DNA of 64,000 bases from an uncultured Verrucomicrobiae bacterium. Lineage in GTDB: Bacteria > Verrucomicrobiota > Verrucomicrobiia > Limisphaerales > UBA11358. Below are positions 7,247-50,329 of the stretch, one piece after another (the first letter of the stretch is position 1; each line of letters begins with the position of its first letter). The DNA is taken from the NCBI GenBank assembly GCA_963719075.1, contig CAVRAN010000005.1, positions 55,310 through 119,309 on the forward strand, in the 5' to 3' direction. A program made the translations under genes and the position numbers. The notes under the pieces were generated by a model. That model worked only from the letters and a program-made list of their open reading frames with translations, made no database searches and was not told where the DNA came from.

Positions 7247-7456
7247 TCAGTCCTTCACGGCGAAGCCAATTTTGAGGGTCACCTGCCAATGATGCACCTT
7301 TCCCTTGACGATGTTGCCGCGGGTTTCGAGCACCTGAAACCAGCACAGGTTCTTGATGGTTTTGTGCGCCCGTTTGATGGCCTTGTCCACGGCGTCCTCG
7401 ATGGAGGTAGTGGAAGTGCCGGTCAGTTCGATGAGTTTATAGACGGGGTCTTTCAT
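7247..7456 (-). CDS. dodecin family protein
   Basis: 69-aa ORF. MKDPVYKLIELTGTSTTSIEDAV...WQVTLKIGF matches the dodecin (DUF1458) pattern. Confidence 0.85.
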   Translation of the reverse strand: MKDPVYKLIELTGTSTTSIEDAVDKAIKRAHKTIKNLCWFQVLETRGNIVKGKVHHWQVTLKIGFAVKD

Positions 7457-7489
7457 GTTCGAATTTCCGGTATCCGTGCATCGGCTGCT

Positions 7490-7684
7490 TCAGGCGGCGA
7501 AAAGTTCCTTAATGGCTTTTTCGACGGCTTCGCGGTTTTCGCCGGTCCGTTTCTGAATGCGGCCCAACAGTTCTTCCTGTTTGCCTGCGGAGTATTGAAG
7601 ATCGTCATCCGTGAGCTTGGCCCATTTCTGTTTCAGCTTGCCCTTGGTGATGTTCCAGTCGCCTTTGATTTCGAGTGTGGTCAT
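7490..7684 (-). CDS. CsbD family general stress protein
   Basis: 64-aa ORF. GDWNITKGKLKQKWAKLTDDDL...GRIQKRTG is the CsbD signature. Confidence 0.9.
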   Translation of the reverse strand: MTTLEIKGDWNITKGKLKQKWAKLTDDDLQYSAGKQEELLGRIQKRTGENREAVEKAIKELFAA

Positions 7685-7757
7685 AGATTTCTTGATTTTG
7701 GTTTTTAAACGTTCAGTTACGTGGTTTGGTAAAGTCTTCGGTGGAACGGCTCAACGG

Positions 7758-7862
7758 TCAGCGGAGCAATAGAACCACGATGACGATGAGGAGAACGAGG
7801 CCGAGCGAGCCGCCGCCGATATAAAGCGCACTGGCAAAAACCGGCAATAATAAGAGGTGCAT
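7758..7862 (-). CDS. small hydrophobic peptide (DUF3309-like tail)
   Basis: 34-codon ORF (MHLLLLPVFASALYIGGGSLGLVLLIVIVVLLLR), too short for the ORF track. It is the first ORF downstream of the motif at 7941..7961. Confidence 0.35.
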   Translation of the reverse strand: MHLLLLPVFASALYIGGGSLGLVLLIVIVVLLLR

Positions 7863-7940
7863 AGTTTGTCTTTCATTTTTGATGGCAATTCATTTGCCGT
7901 CATTTATCTATGGCGACGTTACGCGCCGGGCCGGTCTTTA

Positions 7941-7961
7941 GCTATGGGGTGTAACCCTACT
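7941..7961 (-). promoter_or_regulatory. stress-promoter motif copy (aGTAGGGTTACACCCCATAGC)
   Basis: On the minus strand, 19 nt further on, lies TAACGT (7921..7916). It sits upstream of the small-peptide/CsbD/dodecin gene string. Confidence 0.65.
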
Positions 7962-20176: not shown

Positions 20177-20279
20177 TATGGATTCAGCTTAATTAATTCC
20201 CGGGCAGCCACAAGCAAAATGGCACGAAATTCGCTACATTCAACTGGATTTTGGAGCGCAATCATTGCATCTTGGATGC

Positions 20280-35273: not shown

Positions 35274-35504
35274 ATGTTTGTTGCGAGAGGCATTAAAGCC
35301 TGCTGCATTTATTTCTGCATTATCAGCTAGAGCACTCCATGTGCTGCCAGTGACAAGTTGAAGAATAGGGGTTTTTGATTTCGGCGCAACTTTTTTCTTA
35401 AACAAAAAAGCAAAGCCGCTTTCGCAGCCCGGCTTGTGAACCTGCCTCGTTTCTATTTCTTCACTGCGTCCGGCCGCTCCTTCGAGGAACATCCCCAAAA
35501 TGCA

Positions 35505-35525
35505 GGTAGGGTTACACCCCATAGC
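35505..35525 (+). promoter_or_regulatory. stress-promoter motif copy (GGTAGGGTTACACCCCATAGC)
   Basis: TAGCGT lies 19 nt downstream (35545..35550). It is upstream of the BON gene. Confidence 0.65.
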
Positions 35526-35597
35526 GGAGAACGGACGCATCGCTTAGCGTGTTTCAAGTATTAAAAACAAACAACTCAACAATCGAATTAAAACATA

Positions 35598-36374
35598 ATG
35601 AAAACAACCCATACGCTCGCCTTCATGGCGACGGTAAGCACAATGTTAATCACCAGCGCGCCCCTGCGCGCCGCCGACATGGACAGCCGCATCGAATCGT
35701 CCGCTGCGAACTCCTATACTTTCAAAAACTACCTCAAGGACGATTCAATCAAGACTGATTCCAAGGACGGTGTCGTCACCCTGACCGGCACAGTTGCCAA
35801 TGCGTCGCACAAATCCATGGCCGAAGATACCGTGGCAAGTTTGCCAGGCGTCAAGAGCGTGGACAATGAACTGCTGATCAATGGTGAACAACCGGCTGAA
35901 CATTCCGACGCCTGGATCACCATGAAAGTAAAAACCGCGCTGCTATTCCATCGCAACGTGAGCGGCACCGGAACCACCGTGTATACGGATGGTGGCGTCG
36001 TCACCTTGCAAGGTGTGGCCAGTAGCATGGCCGAAAAAGAACTCACTACCGAATACGCCAAGGACATTGACAATGTTAAATCGGTCAATAACGAGATGAC
36101 GATTGCTTCGACGCCGGCAGCGCCAGACGCAACCGTAGGCGATAAAATTGATGACGCCTCAATCACGGCTGAAGTCAAGTCGTCATTGATGTCGCATAGC
36201 GCGACCAGCGCCATACATACCGGAGTTACGACTACGGACGGTATTGTCACCTTGACCGGCATTGCGAAAAACGATGCTGAAAAGAGCCTCGTCACCAAGC
36301 TCACCGCCGACATCAACGGCGTGACCAGCGTGGTCAACAACATGACCATCGCCGTGCCCGTGGCCTTGAACTAA
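35598..36374 (+). CDS. BON domain protein (OsmY-like), secreted
   Basis: 258 aa with a signal peptide and three BON repeats (DGVVTLTGTVANASHKSMAEDTVASLPGVKSVDNEL and similar). Confidence 0.85.
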   Translation: MKTTHTLAFMATVSTMLITSAPLRAADMDSRIESSAANSYTFKNYLKDDSIKTDSKDGVVTLTGTVANASHKSMAEDTVASLPGVKSVDNELLINGEQPAEHSDAWITMKVKTALLFHRNVSGTGTTVYTDGGVVTLQGVASSMAEKELTTEYAKDIDNVKSVNNEMTIASTPAAPDATVGDKIDDASITAEVKSSLMSHSATSAIHTGVTTTDGIVTLTGIAKNDAEKSLVTKLTADINGVTSVVNNMTIAVPVALN

Positions 36375-36389
36375 ATAATTGACCTACAT

Positions 36390-36415
36390 TGGCTGGCGCG
36401 AAAGCGCGCCAGCCA
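36390..36415. terminator. GC-rich hairpin after BON gene (terminator-like, no clear U-tract)
   Basis: TGGCTGGCGCG-AAAG-CGCGCCAGCCA forms an 11-bp perfect stem. Confidence 0.4.
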
Positions 36416-36437
36416 GCAAACAATAAAAAGAAATTTT

Positions 36438-36590
36438 ATGTTATATACGATTGCGGTGATACTGCTCATTTTGTGGCTATTAGGGTTGGTGACCGGCACT
36501 ACGATGGGTGGTTTCATTCATGTCCTCCTCGTGATTGCCATTGTGGTGGTTTTGCTCAGAATCATATCCGGTAGAAAACCGGTGCTTTGA
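36438..36590 (+). CDS. lmo0937-family small membrane protein
   Basis: 50-aa ORF, MLYTIAVILLILWLLGLVTGTTMGGFIHVLLVIAIVVVLLRIISGRKPVL. It is too short for the ORF track. Confidence 0.7.
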   Translation: MLYTIAVILLILWLLGLVTGTTMGGFIHVLLVIAIVVVLLRIISGRKPVL

Positions 36591-36627
36591 GAAACTGTCG
36601 TCCAAAAAATCAAATTATAAATTCAAT

Positions 36628-36843
36628 ATGAACACAAAAAACATTGTTGCTCTCATTCTGGTTACTCTGGGCATTGTGGTGCTTGCCTATTCAGGCGTCA
36701 GCTTCACGACCCCGGGAAAACCCATCGTGTTCCTCGGGATGCACATTGCGACCACCGACAATCATTTTATCCCGCCAGTCGTTGGAGCGCTTGCGCTCGT
36801 TGGCGGAATCGTGTTGCTGCTCGTGAAACCCAAGAGTGTCTGA
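36628..36843 (+). CDS. small two-TM membrane protein (DUF3185-like)
   Basis: Internal start MNTKNIVALILVTLGIVVLAYSG with a second helix VVGALALVGGIVLLLV. Confidence 0.5.
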   Translation: MNTKNIVALILVTLGIVVLAYSGVSFTTPGKPIVFLGMHIATTDNHFIPPVVGALALVGGIVLLLVKPKSV

Positions 36844-36973
36844 CGAGTGGAGTCAAAGTGGACTTGAATCATTTGCACAGCCCGGACGAAATAAAATTTT
36901 GTTTGGGCCGTCATCGCCCGGCGAATACTTTTCCTCCGGTGTTCACCGGGCTTTCAATTTCTTTTCGAATCAG

Positions 36974-36994
36974 GGTAGGGTTTCACCCCATATA
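36974..36994 (+). promoter_or_regulatory. stress-promoter motif copy (GGTAGGGTTTCACCCCATATA)
   Basis: GATGCT lies 19 nt downstream (37014..37019). It is upstream of the kinase cluster. Confidence 0.6.
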
Positions 36995-37061
36995 CGAATC
37001 AATGAAATCGGTGGATGCTCGAGGATATTTCGGAAAGTTGCGCTGAATTCGGCATACCGAC

Positions 37062-37760
37062 ATGAAACAAAAACTAATCGGGTTGTCACAACAATATGTG
37101 ACGGCGTTGCGAAAACACCTGAAGCAGGGACCAAGTGCGAGCTTGCAGCCGGCGTTGGGACTGGGACGCCGGGCGGTCGTCCTCGGACTGGAGACACTGG
37201 AACTGGCCCGGATTCACGAGCGGGCACTCATCACACTGAAACTGTCCCGCAGCAAAAATGGAAAGCTCAAGCGCGCGAAGATTTTTTTTACCGAGGCCAT
37301 CACCCCGATTGTGGAGACGCACCGCGCCGCGCGGCAGACCAAAGTTCACTTGAGCCGGCTGCAGGAAACGCTGGGCCAGCGCACGGAGGAACTGGCCGCC
37401 ACCAACCGCCAGTTGCAACGCGGCGTCATCCGGCGCAAGGTCATGGAAGATGCCGCCGAGAAAAACGGGCAGCACCACGACAAATGCCTGGAGGAATCGC
37501 TCCAGTTGCAGAAGCGTTTGCGGCAACTGACGCACCGGGTGCTGGCGGCGCAGGAGGATGACCGCAAGCACATCAGCCGCGAACTTCAGGATGAAATCGG
37601 CCAGACTCTGCTGGGGATCAATGTCCGGCTGCTCTCGTTGAAACAGCAGTCCCGGAGCAACACCAAGGGTCTTAAGAATGAAATCGCCAGCACGCAACGA
37701 TTGGTGCTAAAGTCGGCCAGGTCCGTGCGGCGGGTCGCGCGTGAATTCGGCAGCTCATGA
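37062..37760 (+). CDS. truncated histidine-kinase paralog (RsbU_N-like domain plus degenerate HisKA_3, no ATPase domain)
   Basis: 232 aa. The N-terminal ~110 aa align with the next gene. The H-box reads ISRELQDEIGQ, with Gln in place of the phospho-acceptor His. The protein ends before any HATPase_c domain. Confidence 0.7.
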   Translation: MKQKLIGLSQQYVTALRKHLKQGPSASLQPALGLGRRAVVLGLETLELARIHERALITLKLSRSKNGKLKRAKIFFTEAITPIVETHRAARQTKVHLSRLQETLGQRTEELAATNRQLQRGVIRRKVMEDAAEKNGQHHDKCLEESLQLQKRLRQLTHRVLAAQEDDRKHISRELQDEIGQTLLGINVRLLSLKQQSRSNTKGLKNEIASTQRLVLKSARSVRRVAREFGSS

Positions 37761-38968
37761 AACAACGCAAATTTTCCAGACGCTATCAGGCGGCGTTGCT
37801 GGCGTATCTCAAGCAACGTTCGAGCGCGCGCCTGCAACCGGCGCGCGGCATGGGCCAGCAGGCGCTCACCGCTGGCCTGCAGACGCTGGACATTGCCAAG
37901 CTCCATGAGCAAATCCTGGTCACGCTGGTGTTGCCGGGCCGTCCGCCCGGTAAACGCACCGCGCTCATCAAACAGGCGGGGATTTTCTTTACCGAGGCGA
38001 TCACGCCGATCGAGAAAATTCATCGCGGTGCGCGGGAGGCCGCCATCCACCTGAACCAAATCGTCGAGATGTTGAGCCAGCGGACTGTGGAGCTGGCCGC
38101 CTCGAACCTGGACTTGGGAAATGAAATCGCCCAGCGCAAGGCGATGGAGGCCGCGCTCAAAAAAAGCGAGTTGCATTACAGCAGATTGCTGGCGCAGTCG
38201 GAACGCCTGCAGGAACAGTTGCGGCAATTGTCCCGCCAGATTCTTTTGACGCAGGAGGAGGAACGCCGCGAGATCAGCCGCGAGCTGCACGATGTCATCG
38301 CCCAGACTTTAGCCGGCATCAACGTCCGGCTGGCTACGTTGAAAAAGGACGCCGCAGTCAACACCAATGGTCTTGACCGCAACATCGCTCGCACGCAAAA
38401 GCTGGTGGAAAAGTCGGTCAACATTGTGCACCAGTTCGCGCGCGAATTGCGCCCGGCGGTGCTGGACGATCTTGGATTGATTCCAGCCTTGCATTCGTTT
38501 GTGAAAACCTTTTCCAAGCGGACGCGCATCCACGTTCACATGAAAATTTTTGCGGGTGTCGAACAGTTGGACACCAACAAAGACACCAACAAAGACACCA
38601 ACAAAGACACCAACAATAAAAAGCGCACGGTGCTTTATCGCGTCGCCCAGGAATCGCTGAACAATGTCGGCCGCCACGCGAAAGCCAGCCGCGTGGAATT
38701 GAACATCCAGAAAATTCATCAAGTCGCCCGCATGGAAATCAAGGACGACGGCAAATCTTTTCAAGTCGAGCGCGTATTGCGCGCACGCGGAAACAAACAA
38801 TTAGGACTGCTCGGCATGAGGGAACGAGTCGAAATGGTCGGCGGCACTTTTTGCGTCGAATCCGCACCCGGCCATGGCACCACCGTCCGCGTGGAGATTC
38901 CATTCGCCCACGTCCGGAAAGACGCGCTGAAAAAATCTAGTAAAAAAACCACACTGGAATGCCCATGA
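37757..38968 (+). CDS. sensor histidine kinase (RsbU_N-like N-terminal domain, HisKA_3, HATPase_c)
   Basis: 403 aa, ATGA-coupled to the upstream paralog. It has the H-box ISRELHDVIAQTL, an N-box (QESLNNVGRHA) and a G-box (APGHGTTVRVEIP). Confidence 0.85.
   Translation: MKQRKFSRRYQAALLAYLKQRSSARLQPARGMGQQALTAGLQTLDIAKLHEQILVTLVLPGRPPGKRTALIKQAGIFFTEAITPIEKIHRGAREAAIHLNQIVEMLSQRTVELAASNLDLGNEIAQRKAMEAALKKSELHYSRLLAQSERLQEQLRQLSRQILLTQEEERREISRELHDVIAQTLAGINVRLATLKKDAAVNTNGLDRNIARTQKLVEKSVNIVHQFARELRPAVLDDLGLIPALHSFVKTFSKRTRIHVHMKIFAGVEQLDTNKDTNKDTNKDTNNKKRTVLYRVAQESLNNVGRHAKASRVELNIQKIHQVARMEIKDDGKSFQVERVLRARGNKQLGLLGMRERVEMVGGTFCVESAPGHGTTVRVEIPFAHVRKDALKKSSKKTTLECP
38570..38617. repeat. 12-bp in-frame microsatellite (GACACCAACAAA x4) inside kinase gene
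   Basis: It encodes DTNKDTNKDTNKDTNN just upstream of the N-box. Confidence 0.9.
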
Positions 38969-39642
38969 AACGAATCACTGTCCTATTGGCGGAAGATCAC
39001 ACGATTGTGCGAGAAGGATTTCGCAAGATGCTCGAACTCGAAGACGACATCGAAATCATCGCAGAAGCACAAGATGGTCGCCAGGCGATTGCGATGGCAA
39101 AAAAACTTCGTCCCGACGTGGTGCTGATGGACATTGCGATGCCTCTGCTCAATGGCTTGGAGGCCACCCGCCAGGTGCTCAAAGCAATCCCGGCCACCAA
39201 GGTACTCATTCTCTCGGCGCACAGCGACGACGCGTATGTCAAAAACGCAACCGAGTCCGGCGCGGTGGGATTTCTGCTCAAACAAACCTCCGCCCATGCA
39301 GTGTGCCGGGCGATTCGGGAAGTTTACAAGGGAAAAACATTTTTTAGCCCTTCGATTGCCAAACGTCTTCATGAACGCGATCGCAAATCGCCGAATCGGA
39401 GCGGATTACTGAAGCCGCGCAATGCCCATCTGAGTTCGCGGGAGGCGGAGGTGCTTCAATTGATTGCCGAAGGCAAAGCCAACAAGGAAACTGCCGCCGA
39501 ACTGGGCATCGCCATCAAGACCGTCGAGAAGCATCGCGAGCATCTCATGGAGAAGCTCAACATCCATGACACGGCCGGACTCACCCGTTACGCCATCAGC
39601 GAGGGCATCATCGAGAGCAGTGTCCAGTTGACGATTGTTTAG
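38959..39642 (+). CDS. NarL/FixJ-family response regulator (REC plus LuxR-type HTH)
   Basis: 227 aa with VLLAEDH...DVVLMDIAMP (receiver) and LSSREAEVLQLIAEGKANKETAAELGIAIKTVEKHR (HTH). It overlaps the kinase stop. Confidence 0.9.
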   Translation: MPMKRITVLLAEDHTIVREGFRKMLELEDDIEIIAEAQDGRQAIAMAKKLRPDVVLMDIAMPLLNGLEATRQVLKAIPATKVLILSAHSDDAYVKNATESGAVGFLLKQTSAHAVCRAIREVYKGKTFFSPSIAKRLHERDRKSPNRSGLLKPRNAHLSSREAEVLQLIAEGKANKETAAELGIAIKTVEKHREHLMEKLNIHDTAGLTRYAISEGIIESSVQLTIV

Positions 39643-39694
39643 CAACTCTCTGCGATTTTTGTTTCGCGCCAACATTTCTTGATCGGCGGCATTA

Positions 39695-40027
39695 TTGGTT
39701 ATGGAGGAAAACAGCCTCGCTTTCTGGATGACATTGGCCGGCACCGTTTGCTGGGGTATTTGCTTTTGGTGGATGCACCGGCTTTCAACAAAACAAAATG
39801 CCCTTTTGGATCAACTTCGTGATCAGGGCAAACGCATCGAAAAGTTATCCAAGGTTGAACATGATCTCATCAAGGAAGTCCATCCACAGGTTGGCGAGAT
39901 CAAGGAAGGGATGGAAGAAATAATTGCGGTGGTGAAGGAAAATTCAGAAAGCCACCCTCCGGCACCCAAAAAAAGTGCATTAGTCCGCCATCCCGACCTG
40001 CTGAGACAAATTTGGATTCATAAGTGA
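39695..40027 (+). CDS. hypothetical small membrane protein
   Basis: 110 aa with one TM helix (FWMTLAGTVCWGICFWW) and a charged helical tail. The start is TTG 39695 or ATG 39701. Confidence 0.45.
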   Translation: MVMEENSLAFWMTLAGTVCWGICFWWMHRLSTKQNALLDQLRDQGKRIEKLSKVEHDLIKEVHPQVGEIKEGMEEIIAVVKENSESHPPAPKKSALVRHPDLLRQIWIHK

Positions 40028-40029
40028 CT

Positions 40030-40050
40030 GGTAGGGTAACACCCCATAGC
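40030..40050 (+). promoter_or_regulatory. stress-promoter motif copy (GGTAGGGTAACACCCCATAGC)
   Basis: TATACT at 40069..40074 and the ATG at 40083 give a leaderless geometry. Confidence 0.7.
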
Positions 40051-40082
40051 CTGCAAAATGTTCCAGCTTATACTTTAGTTTA

Positions 40083-40577
40083 ATGATAGATAAAAAAACG
40101 TCGCAGGCCAGGGAACCGGTCGGCGCAGCGCCCCAACACAAACCGAATCCACGCCAACGCATTCTCGTGGTCGAGGACGATGATGAAATCCGCCGTCTCA
40201 ACGCCGAAGTGTTAATGCACTCTGGCTACAAGGTGGATACCGCCGTAGATGGCGCTGTCGCCTGGGACGCTCTTCAACTTAACACTTATGACCTCCTGGT
40301 TACCGACCACAATATGCCGAAGCTGTCAGGCGTTGAATTGCTCAAGAAGCTACATGCCGACCGCATGGCACTGCCAGTCATCTTGGTGTCGGGAACGATA
40401 CCGACGGAGAAATTGAAACGCCATCCGTGGCTGCAAATTCAGGCTACCCTGCTCAAGCCCTTTACCGCCGACGAGTTGTTAGGAACTGTGAGAAAGGTTC
40501 TGCGTGCGACCAACGGTGATCACGAGCAACTTGAGCCGCCGTCAAACTGGCAAGGCCAGCCGTTACCCAATGGTTAG
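40083..40577 (+). CDS. single-domain response regulator (receiver only)
   Basis: 164 aa with RILVVEDDDEIRR...LLVTDHNMPKLSG...LLKPF. It is a paralog of 49889..50329. Confidence 0.85.
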   Translation: MIDKKTSQAREPVGAAPQHKPNPRQRILVVEDDDEIRRLNAEVLMHSGYKVDTAVDGAVAWDALQLNTYDLLVTDHNMPKLSGVELLKKLHADRMALPVILVSGTIPTEKLKRHPWLQIQATLLKPFTADELLGTVRKVLRATNGDHEQLEPPSNWQGQPLPNG

Positions 40578-40682
40578 CCGTAATAATGATTTCACTCTGC
40601 AGTTCAGTGTTTATTCAAAGAGAAAGGACGTTAGCCTGCCGTTCTTATCTCTTGTGGCAGGGCTGAATTCATCAACTCCGAC

Positions 40683-40703
40683 ATGGGGAGAACACCCCAT
40701 AGT
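40683..40703 (+). promoter_or_regulatory. stress-promoter motif copy (ATGGGGAGAACACCCCATAGT)
   Basis: TATACT lies at 40724..40729 and the ATG at 40737. Confidence 0.6.
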
Positions 40704-40736
40704 GTCCACGTAATTTTCATGTTTATACTTCAGACT

Positions 40737-40895
40737 ATGAAAAGTAATTGCAGGAAGAAGTCGCTGACGTTCGGTGAATTCATCGCACGTGTCTATGATA
40801 TCTGGGGCGAACACAAAGCCGGAGGAATTGTCCGTCTTGCCATCAAGACGCACTTGATTGAGTTTCGCGGACAACAACGCTTCGTGATTTTTTGA
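40737..40895 (+). CDS. hypothetical small protein
   Basis: 52-aa ORF (MKSNCRKKSLTFGEFIARVYDIWGEH...) that begins 7 nt after the -10-like box. Confidence 0.4.
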   Translation: MKSNCRKKSLTFGEFIARVYDIWGEHKAGGIVRLAIKTHLIEFRGQQRFVIF

Positions 40896-40941
40896 AGACC
40901 TCAAAAAAGATTTTCGTTTCAACTTCAGGAAGGCGGCCGGC

Positions 40942-41790
40942 TTGAATATCCAACCGGGCCGGAGAATTGGAAGTTCAGCGCTGGTGGTTCTGTCGTTTTA
41001 TCTTTCGCTGTTCGCATACGCGCAAGGATCAGCCGTTGACTCCACAAATTCGCTGGGAGCGGAGAATGTTGTTCTCCCCAAATCCGTTCCCGACCCCATC
41101 GAACCGTTCAACCGGGTGATGTGGGACTTTAATGTGGGGCTGATGACCGACGTCATCAAGCCGACAAGCCGCGTTTATCGGTTCATTGTTGTGAAACCGG
41201 TTCGAACCGGAATCGGAAATTTTGGCAGGAACCTCACTTACCCGGGACGATTGATCAACAATCTGCTTCAGGGAAAGTGGAGCGGCGCGCGCGATGAAAC
41301 CTACCGGTTTCTCTGCAATACCACCGTCGGCGTGGCCGGATTCTGGGACGTGGGAACCAAATGGAAGATTCCAAAATCGGACGCGGATTTTGGCCAGACT
41401 TTCGGCAAATGGGGCTGGAAGCCGCATTGTTTTTTCATGCTGCCGGTTTTTGGGCCGAGCAACGAACGCGACACCCTCGGCTTGGCCGCCGACACCGCCG
41501 CCAATCCGTTGCTCTATATCGCTCCCTACAAATTCGACGCGAACAATCCGCTGACCTATCTCGGCCCCTACACTTATTTCACCTACGCGGTCATGTATAA
41601 CGATTTGTCCGACACCGTGGGTGAATATGTGCGCTTCAGCCAGGCTGAAATGGATCCGTATTCCGAGATTCAATATGCCTGGACATTCGCGCGGGCGAAC
41701 CGCGTGGCGGATTTTCAGGTGAAGGGAAAACAGGACGAGGCTTCGCTGGAAACCCTCGAATCCGTTTTCTTCACCTATCAAAGACCCTGA
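40942..41790 (+). CDS. mlaA: MlaA/VacJ family lipoprotein
   Basis: DPIEPFNRVMWDFN ... NFGRNLTYPGRLINNLLQGK ... NTTVGVAGFWDV are MlaA signatures. Confidence 0.8.
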   Translation: MNIQPGRRIGSSALVVLSFYLSLFAYAQGSAVDSTNSLGAENVVLPKSVPDPIEPFNRVMWDFNVGLMTDVIKPTSRVYRFIVVKPVRTGIGNFGRNLTYPGRLINNLLQGKWSGARDETYRFLCNTTVGVAGFWDVGTKWKIPKSDADFGQTFGKWGWKPHCFFMLPVFGPSNERDTLGLAADTAANPLLYIAPYKFDANNPLTYLGPYTYFTYAVMYNDLSDTVGEYVRFSQAEMDPYSEIQYAWTFARANRVADFQVKGKQDEASLETLESVFFTYQRP

Positions 41791-41822
41791 ATTTCCCGGG
41801 CCACGGCAAGACCCGGTCGGTT

Positions 41823-42870
41823 TTGATTCCGGCGACAGGCCGGAAATTAAAATTCACGTTTTGGTTGCAACCGGGAAAAGCGCCCGTGGTTTACATCGTT
41901 CCCGGTCTGGGCTCACATCGGCTGGCCGAAACTTCTCTGGCGCTGGCCGAGTTGGTTTATCAAAAACGGCTTCTCCGCCGTGAGTCGTCAGCAGCCCGTT
42001 CAACTCCGAGTTCATGGAAAACGCCTCGACCGCGGCCCTGCCGGCTTATCTGCCGGTGGACGGCCACGACTTGCACGTCGCGTTGACGGAAATTGACCGC
42101 CACTTGCACGAATTGTATCCGGACCGGTTGGGCGACAGGGCGTTGATGGGTTATTCCATGGGCGCATTCGATTCTTTGTACGTCGCGTCCACCGAACCGA
42201 CGAATCAGTTGCCGTTGATTAAATTTGACCGTTATGTGGCCATCAACACCCCCGGTCCGATTGCTCCACGGGATTTCCAAGCTGGACGAATTTTACCACG
42301 CGCCCCTGAGCTGGCCGGCTGCGGACCGAACCGACAACATCGAAAACACTTTTCTCAAGGTGGCCGCCTTGAGCAAGCTCACCCTCACGCCGCAAACCTC
42401 CCTGCCCTTCAACGCCATCGAATCCAAATTTCTCATCGGCCTGACGTTTCGATTCATGCTGCGCGACATCATTTACAGCAGCCAGCGGCGGAACAATCAG
42501 GGAGTCCTGCAACATCCGATCCGGAATTTCCGGCGCGAGCCGGTGTATCAGGAAATTCTTCAATTATTCCTACCAGGATTATTTTGAGAAATTTGCGATC
42601 CCATATTATCAGGCCCACGGACTTGGACTGGACGCGGCGGAAACATTGAAAAAGGCCGGTGACTTGCGGACGTATGACGCCGGCCTGCGCGCCAACCCGG
42701 ACATCCGCGTCATCTGCAATGAAAACGATTTTCTTCTGGCGGACGAAGATTTGGCCTGGCTCCGCGCCACGTTCTCGCCGGAACAATTGACCGTCTTCAA
42801 TCGCGGCGGACACTTGGGAAATCTCTTCAATCCGACCGTGCAAAAAACAATTTTAGAAGCGCTGGCGAAT
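41823..42870 (+). pseudogene. alpha/beta hydrolase, multiply frameshifted
   Basis: Homologous sense continues across three reading frames, with switches near 41962-41966 (A-run), ~41986, 42248-42252 (C-run) and ~42555. The GYSMGA nucleophile elbow (GxSxG) is present. Confidence 0.6.
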
Positions 42871-42985
42871 CTGAATCCACCCCGGCAAAGTCCCGTCGTC
42901 CTCCCGCGAAATCCCGCAGCCTCCCCGCAAAGTCCCGGCTCGCTCCCATGAAATCCCGGATGTTTCCCGCGAAATCTTGCGCGTG
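42870..42985. repeat. 21-bp-period degenerate tandem array (5-6 units, core CCCGCGAAATCCCG)
   Basis: TCCCG recurs at 42891, 42912, 42933 and 42954, and as TCTTG at 42975, exactly 21 bp apart. Confidence 0.75.
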
Positions 42986-43018
42986 GGTCATGCGGGAAAA
43001 TTTCAGGCGTCAACGCGT

Positions 43019-43039
43019 ATGGGGGAAACACCCCATAGC
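43019..43039 (+). promoter_or_regulatory. stress-promoter motif copy (ATGGGGGAAACACCCCATAGC)
   Basis: TATGCT lies at 43060..43065. A 6-codon mini-ORF starts at 43076. Confidence 0.6.
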
Positions 43040-43092
43040 ATCGTCAAGGTTTCCCTGTCTATGCTTGTAGCGTTTATGAAAAATTTCCGCCC

Positions 43093-43827
43093 ATGAAATC
43101 TGAAGCTCGAGCATTCACCATCCGGGCAATTCCAATTGCCGTCGAGTGGCAGCGCGCCGTTCGAACCGGCAAAATTCCACTGACGGCCAAAGTCATCTGT
43201 ACCGTTTTCCTCGCCGTCCTCGTTCCGGTCTATTTGCACACCTACGGGCCGACCAATTTTTTATGGTTTTGCGATGCCGCGCTCATTCTCACGGTGGCGG
43301 GGATATGGCTGGAAAGTTCCCTGCTCATCAGCATGTGCGCCGTGGGCATACTGCTTCCGCAATGCCTCTGGCTCGCGGATTTTGGCAGCAATCTTCTGGG
43401 TTTTCCCTTTCTGAACCTGACGGGTTATATGTTCGATCCGCATCTTCCCCTTTTCACGCGCGGGCTTTCACTGTTTCATGGCTGGCTGCCTTTCCTGCTC
43501 GTCTGGCTGCTATTCCGTCTTGACTACGATAAACGCGCATTGACTGCGTGGACGGTCGTGGCGGCAGGGTTGGTACTGGTCAGTTACGTTTTTACTCTGC
43601 CCGCCGGAGCGCATCCGGCCAACCCCAACGTCCCCGTCAATATTAATTATGTTTACGGATTTAACGACCAGCAGCCGCAACACTGGGTCAACCAAAACCT
43701 TTATGTTGCCCTGTTGTTTGGCATGTTGTGGCTTGTCGCATTTCTCCCCACCCACTTGGTTTTGCGGAAAATTTTTGCCGTGAGAAAGCCGGAGTCGGCA
43801 CTGAAACTTCCCATTCGATTTATGTAA
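43093..43827 (+). CDS. multi-pass membrane protein (hypothetical)
   Basis: 244 aa with ~6 hydrophobic helices. No family recognised. Confidence 0.6.
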   Translation: MKSEARAFTIRAIPIAVEWQRAVRTGKIPLTAKVICTVFLAVLVPVYLHTYGPTNFLWFCDAALILTVAGIWLESSLLISMCAVGILLPQCLWLADFGSNLLGFPFLNLTGYMFDPHLPLFTRGLSLFHGWLPFLLVWLLFRLDYDKRALTAWTVVAAGLVLVSYVFTLPAGAHPANPNVPVNINYVYGFNDQQPQHWVNQNLYVALLFGMLWLVAFLPTHLVLRKIFAVRKPESALKLPIRFM

Positions 43828-43868
43828 TCATCCCAGTCTGCCAGTCAGGACTGGATTCAAAAATGTTT

Positions 43869-43889
43869 GGTAGGGTAACACCCCATGGC
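43869..43889 (+). promoter_or_regulatory. stress-promoter motif copy (GGTAGGGTAACACCCCATGGC)
   Basis: CATTAT/TATCGT lies 20-23 nt downstream. It is upstream of the CBM48-DUF883 operon. Confidence 0.65.
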
Positions 43890-43965
43890 GTCCGCACGCC
43901 TTCCCTGCGCATTATCGTGATGTAAAATAAAAACATTCTCCAAAAATTAAAAGTCAACCATTCCG

Positions 43966-44364
43966 ATGGATCAAAATATGAAACACAATCACAATCATGA
44001 CAACGCCCGCAGCGCCGCCCAGCAACTGGTGCCTATTCGCTTTGAATTCACGCATCCGACGGCCACGACCGTTTGCGTCGCGGGAAGTTTTAATCATTGG
44101 CAGCCCGAAGCCAAGACGCTGCATTCCTCCGGTGTCGGCCACTGGTGGAAGGAAACGGCTCTCGCACCCGGCACCTATGAGTATTGCCTTGTGGTGGACG
44201 GCAAATGGATGCCCGATCCGCGCGCCAAAGAATCCGTGCCCAACCCGTTTGGCGGAAGAAACTCGATATTGAAAGTGGCCAGCTCGCCAGCAGCCGCGCA
44301 TCTCGCCGACGCAGAAAATTTACCGTTGAAAAAACAAACAAATGGAAACGACAGAAAAATATGA
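43966..44364 (+). CDS. glycogen-binding (CBM48/AMPK-beta-like) domain protein
   Basis: VCVAGSFNHWQPE...GHWWKETALAPGTYEYCLVVDGKWMPDP...FGGRNSIL is the CBM48 pattern. Confidence 0.75.
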   Translation: MDQNMKHNHNHDNARSAAQQLVPIRFEFTHPTATTVCVAGSFNHWQPEAKTLHSSGVGHWWKETALAPGTYEYCLVVDGKWMPDPRAKESVPNPFGGRNSILKVASSPAAAHLADAENLPLKKQTNGNDRKI

Positions 44365-44660
44365 ACAAACATACACAAGCTCACAGTAATGATATTGGCT
44401 CACTTGCCGAAGACGCGCGTGCGTTGATGGCTGCCACCGTTGACGTGGCCGGAGAAAAAGTCGGGGACGCCCGCAAGCGTCTCGCCGCTGCGTTGGAACG
44501 CGGCAAGGAAATCGCCAGCAATGTCCGTGACAAAGCAGTCGCCGGTGCTAAAGCGGCGGACGAAGCCGTGCATGAACATCCGTATAAAGCCATCGCCATC
44601 GGCGTCGGCCTGGGGGCGATTTTTGGCTATCTCCTCGCGCGCCGTTGCTCCCGCGACTGA
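44361..44660 (+). CDS. DUF883 (ElaB/YqjD/YgaM-type) membrane-anchored stress protein
   Basis: 99 aa, ATGA-coupled. It has helical repeats and the C-terminal HPYKAIAIGVGLGAIFGYLLARR anchor. Confidence 0.85.
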   Translation: MNKHTQAHSNDIGSLAEDARALMAATVDVAGEKVGDARKRLAAALERGKEIASNVRDKAVAGAKAADEAVHEHPYKAIAIGVGLGAIFGYLLARRCSRD

Positions 44661-44667
44661 TTTTGTT

Positions 44668-45057
44668 ATGGAAGAACCCACCGTCAGCGTCGGGCAACTG
44701 GGCGTAAGCTCGAAACATTTTGCGCGGCGGCTGGTGACCATAGGAGAAAACCGACTCGAACTGCTGGCGGTGGAAGTGCAGGAGGAACGCGAACGCCATC
44801 TGCACGCCATCCTGCTGGCGTTCAGTGTGGCGGTGCTCGCTCTGCTCGCCGGCCTGACGCTTACGGCGGCCATCGTGATTTGGCTGTGGGCTTGGTCACA
44901 CGTAGCTGTCCTCCTGATATTAACGGCTCTTTACGGAGCCGCCGGGATTTGTCTTTATCGGCGACTCACCGGACTGCTGCGTAATTGGCAGATGCTTTCT
45001 GCCACGTTTGATCAACTTCGAAAGGATCGCGCCTGTCTGGAAAAATTTCTCGCATGA
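44668..45057 (+). CDS. YqjE-like / phage-holin-family membrane protein
   Basis: 129 aa with RLELLAVEVQEERERHL followed by two TM helices. Confidence 0.65.
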   Translation: MEEPTVSVGQLGVSSKHFARRLVTIGENRLELLAVEVQEERERHLHAILLAFSVAVLALLAGLTLTAAIVIWLWAWSHVAVLLILTALYGAAGICLYRRLTGLLRNWQMLSATFDQLRKDRACLEKFLA

Positions 45058-45386
45058 ACCCGCTCGACTCGCGAAAAAAACTTTTGATCGCAGAAAGCGA
45101 ACTCAACCGTGCGCAGTTGGTTCAGGAATTACAAACTATGGCTGACGAAGTTCACTCACTAGCAAACCGGGCCAGAACCATAAGTTCGCTCGCATCAGCT
45201 GCTGCATCGCTGGTTACCGGCCTTGCGTCCTTCCGGCGCAAAAAGTCTGTGCCCGCCACAGAAAAACCTTCATGGCTGCAAACCATTGTCAAAGGCGCGG
45301 GACTCGTTTCCACAATCTGGCAGGCGTTCCGTCCGCAGAATTGCGAGCAAAAAGAAAAAATGGAAGGCCGCGAAACTGACAGGTGA
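45054..45386 (+). CDS. YqjK-like hypothetical protein
   Basis: 110 aa, ATGA-coupled. RKKLLIAESELNRAQL is followed by a hydrophobic segment. Confidence 0.5.
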   Translation: MNPLDSRKKLLIAESELNRAQLVQELQTMADEVHSLANRARTISSLASAAASLVTGLASFRRKKSVPATEKPSWLQTIVKGAGLVSTIWQAFRPQNCEQKEKMEGRETDR

Positions 45387-45682
45387 ATCCGCCCGCGCTG
45401 CCCGAAAACATTTAATGCAGCAACCATTTGAACGATCCGACGCGCGTTTTCCGCCGCCTGCGCGAACCGTTGCTGTGCCCCAATGAAGCGGCAAAGGTTA
45501 AGTGCCGAATGTGGTTTATTCCTGCGGCAGCCTACTGCACGGAAGCGAACTCATCCTCCCTACGGGATGAGCGACTCGGTCACGAATTTCGCCACCGTTT
45601 CTCTGGATGAACTGCTGGCCGCGATGGCTTGAATAGCATTGATTCAAGCCCCAGATTAAATGCAGAATATCAGTCAAAAATT

Positions 45683-47326
<1,644 letters not shown>

Positions 47327-47416
47327 AAACTCCGGTCGGCAGCGGGAATTAAAATCCATCTACAGACGGCCTTGAAGGCAAAGAACCATGACTAACAATT
47401 AATTGATAGGCAGAAC

Positions 47417-47992
47417 ATGTTACCGCGCATTTACCTTATTCGACACGGCGAAACCGAGTGGTCGCTCTCTGGCCAGCATACCAGTTGCACGGACATTCAG
47501 TTGACAGAACGAGGCGAGCAGGATGCACGCAGACTGGGAGAGCGGTTGCGCGGCCTCAATTTCAGCCGGGTGTTCACCAGCCCACGTCAACGTGCACGCC
47601 GAACGTGTGAACTGGCCGGGCTGGGTTCGGTGGCCGAAATCGAACCAGCCCTGGCCGAGTGGGAGTATGGCGATTACGAAGGTCAACGCTCCGCAGAAAT
47701 TCGCAAGGTGCGACCAGACTGGAATCTCTTTCGGGACGGCTGTCCGAATGGCGAAATGCCCGCGCAAATTTCCGGTCGCGTTGACCACTTGATTGCCCGT
47801 CTCCGCGTGCTGGAAGGAAATGTCGCGCTTTTTTCGCATGGCCACCTTGGGCGCGTGCTGGCAGCGCGTTGGATTGGATTGCCGGTGAACGAGGCGCAAC
47901 ATTTCCTGCTGGACACCGCGTCGCTAAGCATTCTCGGTTACGAACACAACCGCGTCGAGTCGCCGGTCATCGCGCTGTGGAACGCGAGTTGA
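47417..47992 (+). CDS. histidine phosphatase family protein
   Basis: IYLIRHGETEWS (RHG catalytic motif) and a SHGH motif are present. Confidence 0.85.
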   Translation: MLPRIYLIRHGETEWSLSGQHTSCTDIQLTERGEQDARRLGERLRGLNFSRVFTSPRQRARRTCELAGLGSVAEIEPALAEWEYGDYEGQRSAEIRKVRPDWNLFRDGCPNGEMPAQISGRVDHLIARLRVLEGNVALFSHGHLGRVLAARWIGLPVNEAQHFLLDTASLSILGYEHNRVESPVIALWNAS

Positions 47993-48012
47993 AATTTTTG
48001 CAAAAGTTTCCG

Positions 48013-48033
48013 GGTAGGGTAATACCCCATACC
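48013..48033 (+). promoter_or_regulatory. stress-promoter motif copy (GGTAGGGTAATACCCCATACC)
   Basis: ATTATG/TATGGC lies 20-22 nt downstream. It is upstream of the transglutaminase-like gene. Confidence 0.6.
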
Positions 48034-48113
48034 GCCGCAAGGTATTCTACGGCATTATGGCGGTGATAAACGGACTCTGTTTCAGGATCAAGAGCCAGCC
48101 GTTACGATCAATT

Positions 48114-49013
48114 ATGAATTGGATTCCGTTAAATCTCACCGTCCGCGTCGGTTGCAAACTCGCCTACGAAACAACCGTGCAGACGCCAGTGCTGTTCGTG
48201 CTCAAACCACGTCTTGAAGGCCGGGTGTTGGTGATGCAGGAAAAACTTTCGTTCGGTATCGGTCTGCCGTCGTATGAGTTTCAGGATTCACACGGCAACA
48301 TCACCTATCGCTCGATGTTCATGCCGGGTCGCAACGAAATCCGTCACGACGCGCTCGTTGCGGTTTCTTCGTTGCCCGATAGCCGGGAAGTATTGGGTCA
48401 AATTCTGCCGGTGGGACAACTGCCTTTTGAATTGTTGCGCTACACGTTGCCGAGCCGTTATTGCGATTCGGACAAGCTGATGAATTTTGCGTGGAACCAA
48501 TTCGGCCAGATCACCCACGGTCTGCCGCGGGTGCAAGCCATCTGTGACTGGGTTCACAACAACATCGAATACCGCTTCGGTTCCGGCAGGCCTGACCTTT
48601 CCGCCTCGGAAGTCATCGCCCGCCGTCACGGCGTCTGCCGCGATTTCGCGCACGCCGCCATTGCGCTGTGTCGCGCCTTCAATTTGCCCGCCCGCTACGT
48701 CACCGGACATTTGCCGGACATCGGCTACGTTGATCCGGGCACGCCGATGGATTTTCACGCTTATTTTGAAGTCTATCTCGGTCAGGAATGGCTCACCTTT
48801 GATCCCCGCTACAATGTTCCGCGTATCGGTCGCGTTAAAGTCGCGCACGGTGCGGACGCGGTGGATGGAGCGTTTGCAACAATTTACGGCGAGGCCAATC
48901 TGACCTATTTTGAAGTCTGGGCTTATCAAGTGAATCCCCAGCAAGTCTCGGTGGGTGATCCCATTGATTTATCTAAACGGCTGGACGGCAATCAGACCGT
49001 GCGGTTTAATTAG
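48114..49013 (+). CDS. transglutaminase-like family protein
   Basis: Start MNWIPLNLTVRV. GVCRDFAHAAIALCRAFNLPARYVTGH carries the catalytic Cys. The ORF is open from 48057. Confidence 0.8.
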   Translation: MNWIPLNLTVRVGCKLAYETTVQTPVLFVLKPRLEGRVLVMQEKLSFGIGLPSYEFQDSHGNITYRSMFMPGRNEIRHDALVAVSSLPDSREVLGQILPVGQLPFELLRYTLPSRYCDSDKLMNFAWNQFGQITHGLPRVQAICDWVHNNIEYRFGSGRPDLSASEVIARRHGVCRDFAHAAIALCRAFNLPARYVTGHLPDIGYVDPGTPMDFHAYFEVYLGQEWLTFDPRYNVPRIGRVKVAHGADAVDGAFATIYGEANLTYFEVWAYQVNPQQVSVGDPIDLSKRLDGNQTVRFN

Positions 49014-49095
49014 TAACTGGAAGCATGATTTACAAGTGGGCGAATTTAAGAGATTGCATTCACGTCTCTATTTTCGGAAACAAATCCAACGGCGT

Positions 49096-49314
49096 TTAAA
49101 CCAAGACAGCCTTGTTCGCTTTTAGATATTTCTCAATGGTTTTTATGCCATTGCATGAATTGGCGATGCGCAGGGCATTGGGCTTGCCCAATTTGTAATG
49201 CACCAGAAATTTGCCGACCATTCCCACCTGAAGATTTGCTTCCGCCATGCGCCAGACTTGACCGGCTTCCAGTGGTTGCAAGCGGGTGCGGCGGGCTGCT
49301 TTAATTTTTATCAT
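49096..49314 (-). CDS. hypothetical small protein (tandem paralog A)
   Basis: 72 aa with GQVWRMAE...LVHYKLGKPNA...IEKYLKANKAVLV. It is similar to 49481..49705. Confidence 0.5.
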   Translation of the reverse strand: MIKIKAARRTRLQPLEAGQVWRMAEANLQVGMVGKFLVHYKLGKPNALRIANSCNGIKTIEKYLKANKAVLV

Positions 49315-49480
49315 GGCTGATCCTGCCCTTTAACTTTCGATTAAACCAGTTAAATCGCCATATGATTTGGGAGAAAAATTCACCCGGCCGGCGGATTTTT
49401 TTCTAGACGAAGGCAAAGAAACAAAGGACACAAAGGTGTGAATCATATTCTCTTTAAGGATTTGCGCCCTTTGCACGAAA

Positions 49481-49705
49481 TCATCCCTGAACCAGCACGG
49501 CTTTGTTTTTTTTCAGATACTTTTCAATGGTCGCCTTGCCGCTGACCAAATTGGGCACTCTGACGGCGTTGGGCTTGGCCAGTTTGTAATGCACCAGCAA
49601 TTTGCCAACGAGTTCCACCCGGAGATTCATTTCCGCCATGCGCCAGACCTGGCCGGTTTCAAGTGATTGCATACGTGTTTGGCGCGCCAGCTTGTTCTTC
49701 TTCAT
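49481..49705 (-). CDS. hypothetical small protein (tandem paralog B)
   Basis: Start MKKNKLARQTRMQSLETGQVWRMAE. The ORF is open to 49744. Confidence 0.5.
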   Translation of the reverse strand: MKKNKLARQTRMQSLETGQVWRMAEMNLRVELVGKLLVHYKLAKPNAVRVPNLVSGKATIEKYLKKNKAVLVQG

Positions 49706-49835
49706 AACGCAGTCTGCGCCAAAACGCTCAATTAAACCAGTCAAATCGCCATGTGAATGCGGAAAACAAAATTTATCAAATAACCGACGATGATTTTTGG
49801 CAGTGCCGTAATTTGAAATGGCAATCTTCTAATTA

Positions 49836-49856
49836 GTAAGGGAAACACCCCATCGC
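49836..49856 (+). promoter_or_regulatory. stress-promoter motif copy (GTAAGGGAAACACCCCATCGC)
   Basis: TATGGT at 49877..49882 and the ATG at 49889 give a leaderless geometry. Confidence 0.6.
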
Positions 49857-49888
49857 GTCTGCCAGTCATTTCGGCTTATGGTAGTGCC

Positions 49889-50329
49889 ATGAAAGAAAAT
49901 AACATTTCGCCAGTGGCAAAGCCAACGACCAGTCCCCATCGTATTCTCGTGGCGGAAGATGATCACGACGTTCGCCGTCTTAATACCGAAGTATTGATTG
50001 ACTCAGGCTATCATGTGGACGCCGCCCAAGATGGTGCCATCGCTTGGGATATTCTTCAGATTAAAAGCTACGATCTTCTCATCACCGACTATGATATGCC
50101 GAAACTGTCAGGCCTTGAATTGGTCAAGAAGGCGCGGGCCGCGCGTATGGCGTTGCCGGTCATCTTGGTGTCAGGCAAGATGCCAATGGAGGTGTTGAGA
50201 GAGCACTCGTGGCTGCAAATCAACGCAACGCTGCCCAAGCCCTATGGCATCATGGAATTGTTGGACACCGTGAAAGAAGTTCTGGGAGCAACTGGCGGCA
50301 AACCTGATTTCAAATTAAGCATTCTCTGA
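49889..50329 (+). CDS. single-domain response regulator (receiver only)
   Basis: 146 aa with RILVAEDDHDVRR...LLITDYDMPKLSG...LPKPY. It is a paralog of 40083..40577. Confidence 0.85.
   Translation: MKENNISPVAKPTTSPHRILVAEDDHDVRRLNTEVLIDSGYHVDAAQDGAIAWDILQIKSYDLLITDYDMPKLSGLELVKKARAARMALPVILVSGKMPMEVLREHSWLQINATLPKPYGIMELLDTVKEVLGATGGKPDFKLSIL

Follow-up and report, generated by a model that had tools for sequence, protein, structure and literature searches.

A 21-bp box that occurs nine times in a 64,000-nucleotide stretch of contig CAVRAN010000005.1 from an uncultured Verrucomicrobiae bacterium (the whole stretch is hereafter called the window) would, in our reading, be the operator at which an activator turns on a general-stress-type regulon shared across the whole of Verrucomicrobiota. 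The candidate activator is the NarL/FixJ-type response regulator encoded at 38959..39642 (+), which follows genes for a pseudokinase (37062..37760, +) and a histidine kinase (37757..38968, +). We propose that the adjacent soluble RsbU_N-HisKA_3 kinase would phosphorylate this regulator, and that a regulator dimer would sit on a dyad near -43.5 that overlaps a crippled -35 element. Because the dyad centre lies over this crippled -35, the promoters should need a bound activator, and transcription would depend on it in the class-II manner of LuxR and TraR. Kinase and regulator would be co-transcribed from a promoter that itself bears the box, resulting in positive autoregulation, and the pseudokinase and the box-driven receiver-only proteins would probably modulate or damp the signal. 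The genes behind the box encode envelope and stress proteins, including BON/OsmY, CsbD, YflT, OsmC, DUF883/ElaB, MlaA, PRC-barrel, DUF2934 and CBM48 proteins and small membrane peptides. To the full model, in which the phosphorylated regulator activates the box promoters from a class-II position, we assign a probability of about 0.6.

The nine copies of the box, which had been listed in a preliminary description of this DNA, were all verified at their coordinates and strands. A position weight matrix (PWM) trained on the nine boxes recovers those nine only in the 64 kb, with scores of 21.3-32.8 bits versus 10.9 bits for the runner-up. The 21-mer GGTAGGGTAACACCCCATAGC has five matches in the window when up to three mismatches are allowed, compared to none expected from 100 dinucleotide-preserving shuffles. 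Box 1 (AGTAGGGTTACACCCCATAGC, 7941..7961) lies on the minus strand, has its -10 hexamer TAACGT at 7916-7921, and precedes an operon for a 34-aa peptide, CsbD and dodecin. The remaining boxes lie on the plus strand: box 2 (GGTAGGGTTACACCCCATAGC, 35505..35525; TAGCGT at 35545-35550), box 3 before the regulator operon (GGTAGGGTTTCACCCCATATA, 36974..36994; a weak GATGCT at 37014-37019), box 4 (GGTAGGGTAACACCCCATAGC, 40030..40050; TATACT at 40069-40074), box 5 in palindromic form (ATGGGGAGAACACCCCATAGT, 40683..40703; TATACT at 40724-40729), box 6 (ATGGGGGAAACACCCCATAGC, 43019..43039; TATGCT at 43060-43065), box 7 (GGTAGGGTAACACCCCATGGC, 43869..43889; CATTAT at 43910-43915), box 8 (GGTAGGGTAATACCCCATACC, 48013..48033; CATTAT at 48053-48058), and box 9 (GTAAGGGAAACACCCCATCGC, 49836..49856; TATGGT at 49877-49882). 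The -10-like hexamer previously reported behind each copy was thus found again in all nine cases, 19-20 nt downstream of the box.

All nine boxes are oriented toward the next gene and all nine lie between genes, as had been stated, subject to start-codon caveats at two of them. The box at 35505 sits under the first 12 codons of the longest open reading frame (ORF) of a divergent AIPR gene (33996-35540, -), and is intergenic if translation of this gene begins at the following Met (35492) or further in. Behind the box at 48013, the ATG at 48057 that opens the ORF of a transglutaminase-like protein falls within the -10 hexamer; because of this overlap we moved the start to the available in-frame ATG at 48114, which is probably the true one. 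Eight of the nine boxes lie within 13 kb of the pseudokinase-kinase-regulator operon, and none of the housekeeping genes of the window carries a box. We found no match to any Rfam family anywhere in the window, and an RNA element was rejected on that count.

The box is found far beyond this genome. We searched for relatives of the kinase with one genome per species and used the best 80 of 183; the loci around these 80 orthologues, with 10 kb of flank per side, comprise 1.2 Mb. Judged by record titles, the 80 belong mostly to Verrucomicrobiota, with a few generic bacterial titles, and their kinases are 90-47% identical to that of the window. They span Limisphaerales/'subdivision 3', Verrucomicrobiaceae/Prosthecobacter, Chthoniobacterales, Opitutaceae, and Akkermansia. 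Scored with the nine-site PWM at a threshold of at least 18 bits, these loci contain 235 box matches, compared to 0 in the reversed sequences that served as control. In a relative that has independent gene calls, 4 out of 4 boxes are intergenic and co-oriented with the next gene. Across the kinase loci, 72% of the sites fall outside crude long-ORF calls, although such ORFs cover 79% of the DNA. In addition, an exact-match scan of metagenome contigs yielded at least 120 loci with the box from peat, bog, soil, and lake samples. On this distribution the box is a phylum-wide element and not a peculiarity of one genome, because it is found both in the kinase loci of many lineages and in metagenome contigs. 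Among the 80, five metagenome-assembled genomes (MAGs) titled 'uncultured Bifidobacteriaceae bacterium (binchicken...)' (L001, L009, L028, L036, and L040) have kinase loci 65-80% identical to that of the window with the same boxes, and their Bifidobacteriaceae labels look wrong.

We built a logo from 229 unique sites, with positions counted from the first base of the box. G5, G6, A12, C13-C16, A17, and T18 are essentially invariant. The imperfect dyad noted earlier is indeed present, but its rendering as GGGTA-A-cACCC is less accurate than an 18-bp inverted repeat of the form 8-2-8, ATGGGGTG-AA-CACCCCAT. The half next to the promoter (A12-CCCC-A17-T18) hardly varies; the distal one is degenerate, taking either the form GGTAGGGT(T/A)A or that of the true mirror image, ATGGGGTG-AA. 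About one third of the sites are perfect or near-perfect 8-2-8 palindromes, which score on both strands, and the remainder are half-degenerate. The form of the box is constant per gene family across species: GGTAGGGTTA stands before the BON, CsbD, CBM48, YflT, and lipoprotein genes and GGTAGGGTTT(C/T) before the kinase operon, and the receiver-only genes and a small ORF-MlaA pair mostly have the palindromic form.

Downstream of the box, the logo shows a -10 element, TAnnnT, at positions 41-46 (A42 0.74, T46 0.76), 19 nt past the box, and an A-rich stretch from position 55 onward. Nothing is conserved upstream of the box in these 229 sites, and apart from the -10 no flanking conservation extends past the 21 bp. 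Among 475 sites, a strict TAnnnT within 1 nt of position 41 is present in 65% of the GGTA-type and 55% of the palindromic sites, and on the mirrored side of the box in 1-3% only. Because the mirrored side nearly always lacks a -10, the palindromic boxes too are, on this pattern, unidirectional, and we rejected bidirectional promoters at these sites. Positions 18-23 read T(A/G)GCnn, lie exactly 17 nt from the -10, and keep only T1 and G3 of TTGACA. This supports the earlier statement that the motif abuts or overlaps the -35 region: we read these positions as a crippled -35, which would account for an AGC extension that is conserved on the promoter side only. With the predicted +1 near position 53, the box would span about -53 to -33 and the centre of the dyad (position 9.5) would lie near -43.5. 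As at class-II promoters, the site is thus centred within about -41 to -45 of the predicted +1, overlaps a poor -35, and keeps a fixed spacing to the -10.

Of 228 sites near kinase loci, 46 have the start codon of the best downstream ORF at the predicted +1/+2 (positions 53-54), as do 37 of 212 sites from metagenomes; a second, broad peak of start codons lies at 36-45 nt. In the window, ATG 40083 of a first receiver-only gene begins 8 nt past the -10, and ATG 40737 of a 52-aa ORF and ATG 49889 of a second receiver-only gene each begin 7 nt past it. Start codons this close to the -10 imply leaderless mRNAs, so the transcripts of both receiver-only genes and of the 52-aa ORF are probably leaderless. 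Taken over all box-driven genes, approximately 20% look leaderless. In Akkermansia muciniphila, about 10% of mapped starts are leaderless, and promoters have sigma-70-like -35/-10 elements (PMC4782308).

The box is closely associated with the pseudokinase-kinase-regulator operon. In 57 of 67 assessable species (85%), a box lies within 350 nt upstream of this operon, in sense orientation in 51 of them, compared to 8% for random windows drawn from those loci. Among 33 metagenome fragments of at least 8 kb that were chosen only for the box, seven also carry the operon (~21%, where a single-copy gene would be expected on well under 1%). In the conserved cluster, both that of the window and that of the relatives L201/L202, we detected no DNA-binding protein besides the GerE-type regulator. 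The palindromic copies of the box favour a dimeric DNA-binding protein. The upstream box, the clustering, and the palindromes together support the earlier suggestion that the co-located NarL-type regulator may act as a class-II activator. The promoter of the kinase operon differs from the others in having a conserved sub-optimal -10 of the form GAnnnT (GATGCT, GATATT, or GATGTT, with G for T at the first position), and its leader is mostly 66-67 nt in orthologous loci and about 35-40 nt in the window. This non-canonical -10 and leader suggest deliberately weak or differently tuned expression of the regulators.

By domain tests, the kinase and regulator form a two-component pair of the NarL/FixJ family that belongs to no named subfamily. 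The kinase consists of RsbU_N, HisKA_3, and HATPase_c domains and has an intact H-box (SRELHD). Pfam finds no transmembrane or periplasmic sensor domain on it, and for this reason it is probably soluble. The pseudokinase, 49% identical to the N-terminal 230 residues of the kinase, has an RsbU_N-like domain, a coiled coil, and HisKA_3, is without an ATPase domain, and reads SRELQD at the H-box. The phospho-acceptor His is changed to Gln in 44 of 55 pseudokinase orthologues (from loci L001-L064) and is intact in 78 of 80 kinase orthologues. RsbU_N (PF08673) scores 29.5 bits in the kinase (cut-off 25.5) and 25.2 bits, just below the cut-off, in the pseudokinase; it also appears in the precomputed Pfam annotation of many orthologues among the at least 120 relatives listed, which are at least 71% identical. 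The regulator gene overlaps that of the kinase by 10 nt and encodes REC and GerE helix-turn-helix (HTH) domains (Response_reg 2.3e-27, GerE 8.2e-19). In 44 orthologues, down to ~52% identity, the Asp within its VVLMDIAMP motif is conserved and there is next to no variation in the recognition helix, KTVEKHR. Among solved structures, those of VraR/LiaR, DesR, ChrA, NarL, and DevR are most closely related to the regulator, and RcsB is also among the solved relatives. Neither kinase nor regulator reaches an equivalog cut-off in NCBIfam; the best hits, MctS/MctR, score far below it and were rejected as names. We infer that the pseudokinase either forms a pair with the kinase or acts as a competitor for the kinase's partner, and that the box-driven receiver-only proteins are phosphate sinks or connectors. 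At 38570-38616 (+), the kinase gene contains a perfect 12-bp tandem repeat (GACACCAACAAA x3.9) whose translation, (DTNK)n, separates the DHp domain from the ATPase domain; with it the kinase is 403 aa long, compared to 387-388 aa in most relatives, and the repeat may be a hypervariable in-frame microsatellite.

The genes behind the box point to a stress-type regulon. We clustered the first downstream gene for 440 sites from kinase loci and metagenomes. Proteins consisting of REC only are the most frequent box-driven family (50 sites), followed by BON/OsmY-like proteins (39), the pseudokinase-kinase operon (31), a coiled-coil lipoprotein (28), another lipoprotein family (21), CBM48 (16), a 65-aa THIVI_2564 membrane peptide (16), YflT (10), the small ORF-MlaA pair (10), an outer membrane protein beta-barrel (9), CsbD (7), DUF2934 (7), PRC-barrel (6 + 5), and OsmC (5). 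In other phyla, such families are typical of the regulons of sigma-B, RpoS, and EcfG, and CsbD, YflT, BON, OsmC, DUF883, PRC-barrel, and DUF2934 genes are all found among the box-driven ones. The phylum-wide conservation, the fixed distance to the -10, and these hallmark stress families agree with the earlier view of the box as the cis-element of a stress-type regulon.

Several points weigh against the role that we assign to the regulator. Its binding to the box is a prediction from sequence, as are the transcription starts, and the 'stress' assignment is drawn from the gene families. Autoregulation and clustering would be equally expected if the operon merely belonged to the regulon of another factor. 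Moreover, the strong asymmetry of the box, with poor palindromes at two thirds of the sites, would also fit a monomeric or non-HTH reader; 10 of the 67 kinase operons, mostly from Opitutaceae and other distant lineages, have no detectable upstream box; and a box that overlaps the -35 region could serve repression.

These points bear first on the possibility that a different, unlinked dimeric factor, such as a CRP/FNR-type or other HTH protein, reads the box and has the two-component operon as just one of its targets. A dyad near -42 is also the classic class-II position of CRP/FNR, and the operons without a box would be readily accommodated, as would the 79% of box-anchored metagenome fragments that do not carry the two-component operon and thus indicate a dispersed regulon. 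However, the conserved cluster holds no DNA-binding protein other than the regulator, and the co-occurrence of box and operon on anchored fragments is far stronger than expected. In addition, the TACCCC/CACCCC core of the G/C-rich half-site resembles the heptamers of the NarL family, a resemblance that we treat as a lead only. On balance we consider an unlinked factor rather doubtful.

A second possibility, which the preliminary description had left standing beside the activator, is that a sigma factor dedicated to this purpose recognises the box as its -35 region, in the manner of the alternative sigma factors of the sigma-B, RpoS, and EcfG responses. The content of the regulon does match sigma-driven general stress regulons of other phyla, and the promoter-proximal half together with the AGC extension is far better conserved than the distal half. 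Nevertheless, with its end 22 nt before the -10, the invariant core is too distant to form a -35/-10 pair, the -10 is of the housekeeping type TAnnnT and not the CGT type of extracytoplasmic function sigma factors, and one third of the sites are perfect palindromes. The 229-site logo contains no sigma-specific -35/-10 pair at 14-18 nt (e.g. GTTTAA-N12-15-GGGTAT or GGAAC-N16-17-CGTT), and an EcfG promoter was rejected since its consensus, the latter of these two, does not fit the box. A SigB-like reading, with GGGT(T/A)A as the -10 and an upstream AAATTT/GGATTC as the -35, was likewise discarded: this upstream element had been noticed at the nine sites of the window only and is lost in the logo. 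A sigma-54 promoter does not fit either, as the invariant GG (5-6) and GC (20-21) are 13 nt apart, unlike GG-N10-GC, and are followed by TAnnnT. The cluster (35-52 kb, and its counterparts in L201/L202) is without sigma, anti-sigma, or partner-switching genes, and the sole sigma gene found in the examined parts of the window is rpoN, 17 kb away. Dyad symmetry, the type of -10, the 22-nt gap, and the absence of a linked sigma gene thus make a sigma factor unlikely.

The regulator might also bind the box and repress, with release under stress de-repressing the genes. Operators that overlap the -35 commonly repress, and the geometry alone fits either sign. We nonetheless consider repression very unlikely, as the -35 is degenerate at almost all sites (T(A/G)GCnn versus TTGACA), so that the promoters would be weak without help, and as the spacing from box to -10 is fixed within 1 nt in hundreds of promoters, which is typical of activators that touch the polymerase and needless for steric repression. 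Finally, although the box is short, partly palindromic, multi-copy, and intergenic, like a repetitive extragenic palindrome or a miniature inverted-repeat transposable element, a repeat or mobile element without regulatory role is refuted to a reasonable standard by the fixed orientation and distance to the -10 and start codons, by its occurrence at the same gene families across the phylum, and by the lack of a conserved flank past 21 bp and of any Rfam match, and we give it a negligible chance.

The proposed activation by the NarL-type regulator can be compared to known systems. NarL/NarP and other NarL/FixJ-family systems with HisKA_3 kinases, such as NarXL of Escherichia coli with its '7-2-7' sites, share the combination of a REC+GerE regulator, with NarL among the closest solved relatives, and a HisKA_3 kinase. 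Here as there, inverted heptamer-like half-sites lie 2 bp apart, with a C-rich core of TACCCC/CACCCC in the box compared to TACYYMT for NarL. However, the half-sites of the box point the opposite way (an AKRRGTA-like one followed by a TACYYMT-like one), a soluble kinase whose N-terminus is of the RsbU_N type stands in place of a periplasmic nitrate sensor, and the regulon comprises stress and envelope proteins whereas that of NarL serves anaerobic respiration. DosR/DevR of Mycobacterium tuberculosis, also a NarL-type regulator, has a ~20-bp G/C-rich palindrome over the -35, positive autoregulation, and a regulon whose small stress and dormancy proteins are encoded at scattered sites, in part close to the regulator. 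We predict the same combination of a palindromic box over the -35, autoregulation, and a dispersed yet partly clustered regulon here. The DosR system differs in its box (GGGACT-N-AGTCCC type), in its GAF-haem kinases DosS/DosT, in its gene families and phylum, and in having no pseudokinase. In LuxR and TraR, a GerE/LuxR HTH dimer on an 18-20 bp dyad near -42 to -45 replaces a poor -35 (the lux box is centred at -42.5, and the tra box is 18 bp long). The geometry inferred for our box is of this same class-II kind, but LuxR and TraR are activated by ligands and not by phosphorylation, and their regulons are small and concerned with quorum sensing. RcsB of enterobacteria, of the NarL/FixJ family, binds a dyad over the -35 and turns on genes for envelope and osmotic stress, osmC among them; a dyad over the -35 and an envelope/stress output under a regulator of this family are what we predict here. 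Unlike our system, Rcs is a multi-step phosphorelay with membrane sensors, an AT-rich box (TAAGAAT-ATTCCTA type), and a different host phylum. Common to DosR, RcsB, and LuxR/TraR is a GerE-HTH dimer placed on a dyad of 18-20 bp over a poor -35, as a rule together with autoregulation, and the mechanism proposed here is of this kind.

In output, the regulon resembles sigma-type stress responses: CsbD and YflT are shared with sigma-B of Firmicutes, whose pathway also includes the RsbU_N domain, OsmY/BON, OsmC, and ElaB/YqjD with RpoS of Gammaproteobacteria, and PRC-barrel, DUF2934, and CsbD, together with single-domain receivers, with PhyR-NepR-EcfG of Alphaproteobacteria. An autoregulated master regulator, as proposed here, is likewise common to these responses. 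In contrast to them, we found no dedicated sigma promoter and no linked sigma or anti-sigma genes, and control appears to lie with a DNA-binding response regulator acting at a housekeeping-type -10; judged by these promoter and gene features, the regulon does not qualify as a sigma-type stress regulon. In some Proteobacteria, Vibrio vulnificus among them (PMC12143880, PMC9237108), kinases with an RsbU N-terminal domain are encoded next to stressosome genes, and in RsbU itself RsbU_N is a dimerisation and RsbT-docking module (PMC12143880). Both our kinase and our pseudokinase carry this module, and rsbR, rsbS, and rsbT genes (STAS, HATPase_c_2) are absent from the cluster here and in L201/L202. 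The partner of RsbU_N may be the pseudokinase or a protein encoded elsewhere.

The names previously given to the genes behind the nine boxes are backed by Pfam (BON, DUF5670 of the lmo0937 family, RsbU_N+HisKA_3 with or without HATPase_c, REC+GerE, two REC-only proteins, MlaA, CBM48, DUF883, Phage_holin_3_6, transglutaminase, CsbD, and dodecin), with the exception of a YqjK-like protein that matches no family. The operon of box 1 (7247..7862, -) encodes a hydrophobic peptide of 34 aa (7758-7862), CsbD (7490-7684; Pfam 1e-13), and dodecin (7247-7456; 1.8e-28). Box 2 precedes an operon (35598..36826, +) for a triple-BON OsmY-like protein (35598-36374), a DUF5670/lmo0937-type peptide (36438-36590), and a small membrane protein (36644-36826). 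Behind box 4 lies the first receiver-only response regulator (40083..40577, +), and behind box 9 the second (49889..50329, +), for both of which Pfam finds REC alone. The operon of box 5 (40737..41790, +) consists of the probably leaderless 52-aa ORF (40737-40895) and an MlaA lipoprotein gene (40942-41790), the arrangement found at 10 sites across the loci. Box 6 is followed by a gene for a multi-pass membrane protein (43093..43827, +) without Pfam or NCBIfam match that is box-driven in seven loci. The operon of box 7 (43966..45386, +) encodes a CBM48/AMPK-CBM protein (43966-44364), a DUF883 protein of the ElaB/YqjD type (44361-44660), a YqjE-like Phage_holin_3_6 protein (44668-45057), and the YqjK-like protein (45054-45386). 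Box 8 precedes the Pfam-supported transglutaminase-like protein (48114..49013, +, with the start reset to ATG 48114).

Some neighbouring features deserve mention. On the 3' side of the CsbD-dodecin operon, a lipoprotein gene (6723-7211, -) contains a 39-bp repeat (x8.1, 6773-7088) that encodes MPATNGMSD(M/V)(N/D)TN units, and similar repeat lipoproteins are encoded by the first gene past the box in three metagenome loci. The stretch that holds the AIPR (abortive-infection phage-resistance) gene, whose orientation is directly divergent to the BON promoter, is low in GC (45% versus ~53%), and the relatives L201/L202 have a GrpE gene in place of AIPR. The AIPR gene may be a defence gene that was gained by horizontal transfer and became inserted next to the stress cluster. 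Two further features are unrelated to the box: rpoN (sigma-54) is divergent from hpf, the gene for a ribosome hibernation factor (18686-20633), and a tandem repeat of 69/139 bp at 30850-31138, inside a coding region at 30608-31526, encodes what look like leucine-rich-repeat-like units.

In the full texts that we searched, we found no description of this motif, or of a general stress regulator or regulon in Verrucomicrobiota. Tentatively, as an idea with somewhat worse than even prospects, we suggest that the general stress response of Verrucomicrobiota has its master switch in this system, which would be a fourth architecture beside RpoS, sigma-B, and EcfG. The phosphorylated NarL-type regulator would then do the job of an alternative sigma factor with the housekeeping polymerase, acting from its class-II site, and would be fed by a soluble kinase with an RsbU_N partner-docking module. 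The look-alike that has neither the phospho-acceptor His nor an ATPase domain would gate the regulator, as a NepR- or anti-kinase-like brake or as a sensor subunit, and the receiver-only proteins that the regulon encodes would have a further influence on signalling.

Members of the Verrucomicrobiota abound in soil, peat, and freshwater and, in the case of Akkermansia, in the gut, and the control of their transcription is almost uncharted. What our analysis adds is a sharply defined operator that lineages throughout the phylum share, a promoter model in which the -10 follows the box at 19 nt and the start, often the AUG of a leaderless mRNA, follows the -10 at 7-8 nt, and a candidate regulator. 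The box gives a route to predicting the stress regulon in any verrucomicrobial MAG, and its promoters would offer a natural inducible set for the few tractable strains. If the model is true, it would be an example of the CsbD, OsmY, ElaB, YflT, and OsmC families being placed under a two-component activator instead of a sigma factor, and would give a poorly studied phylum a candidate, testable general stress switch.

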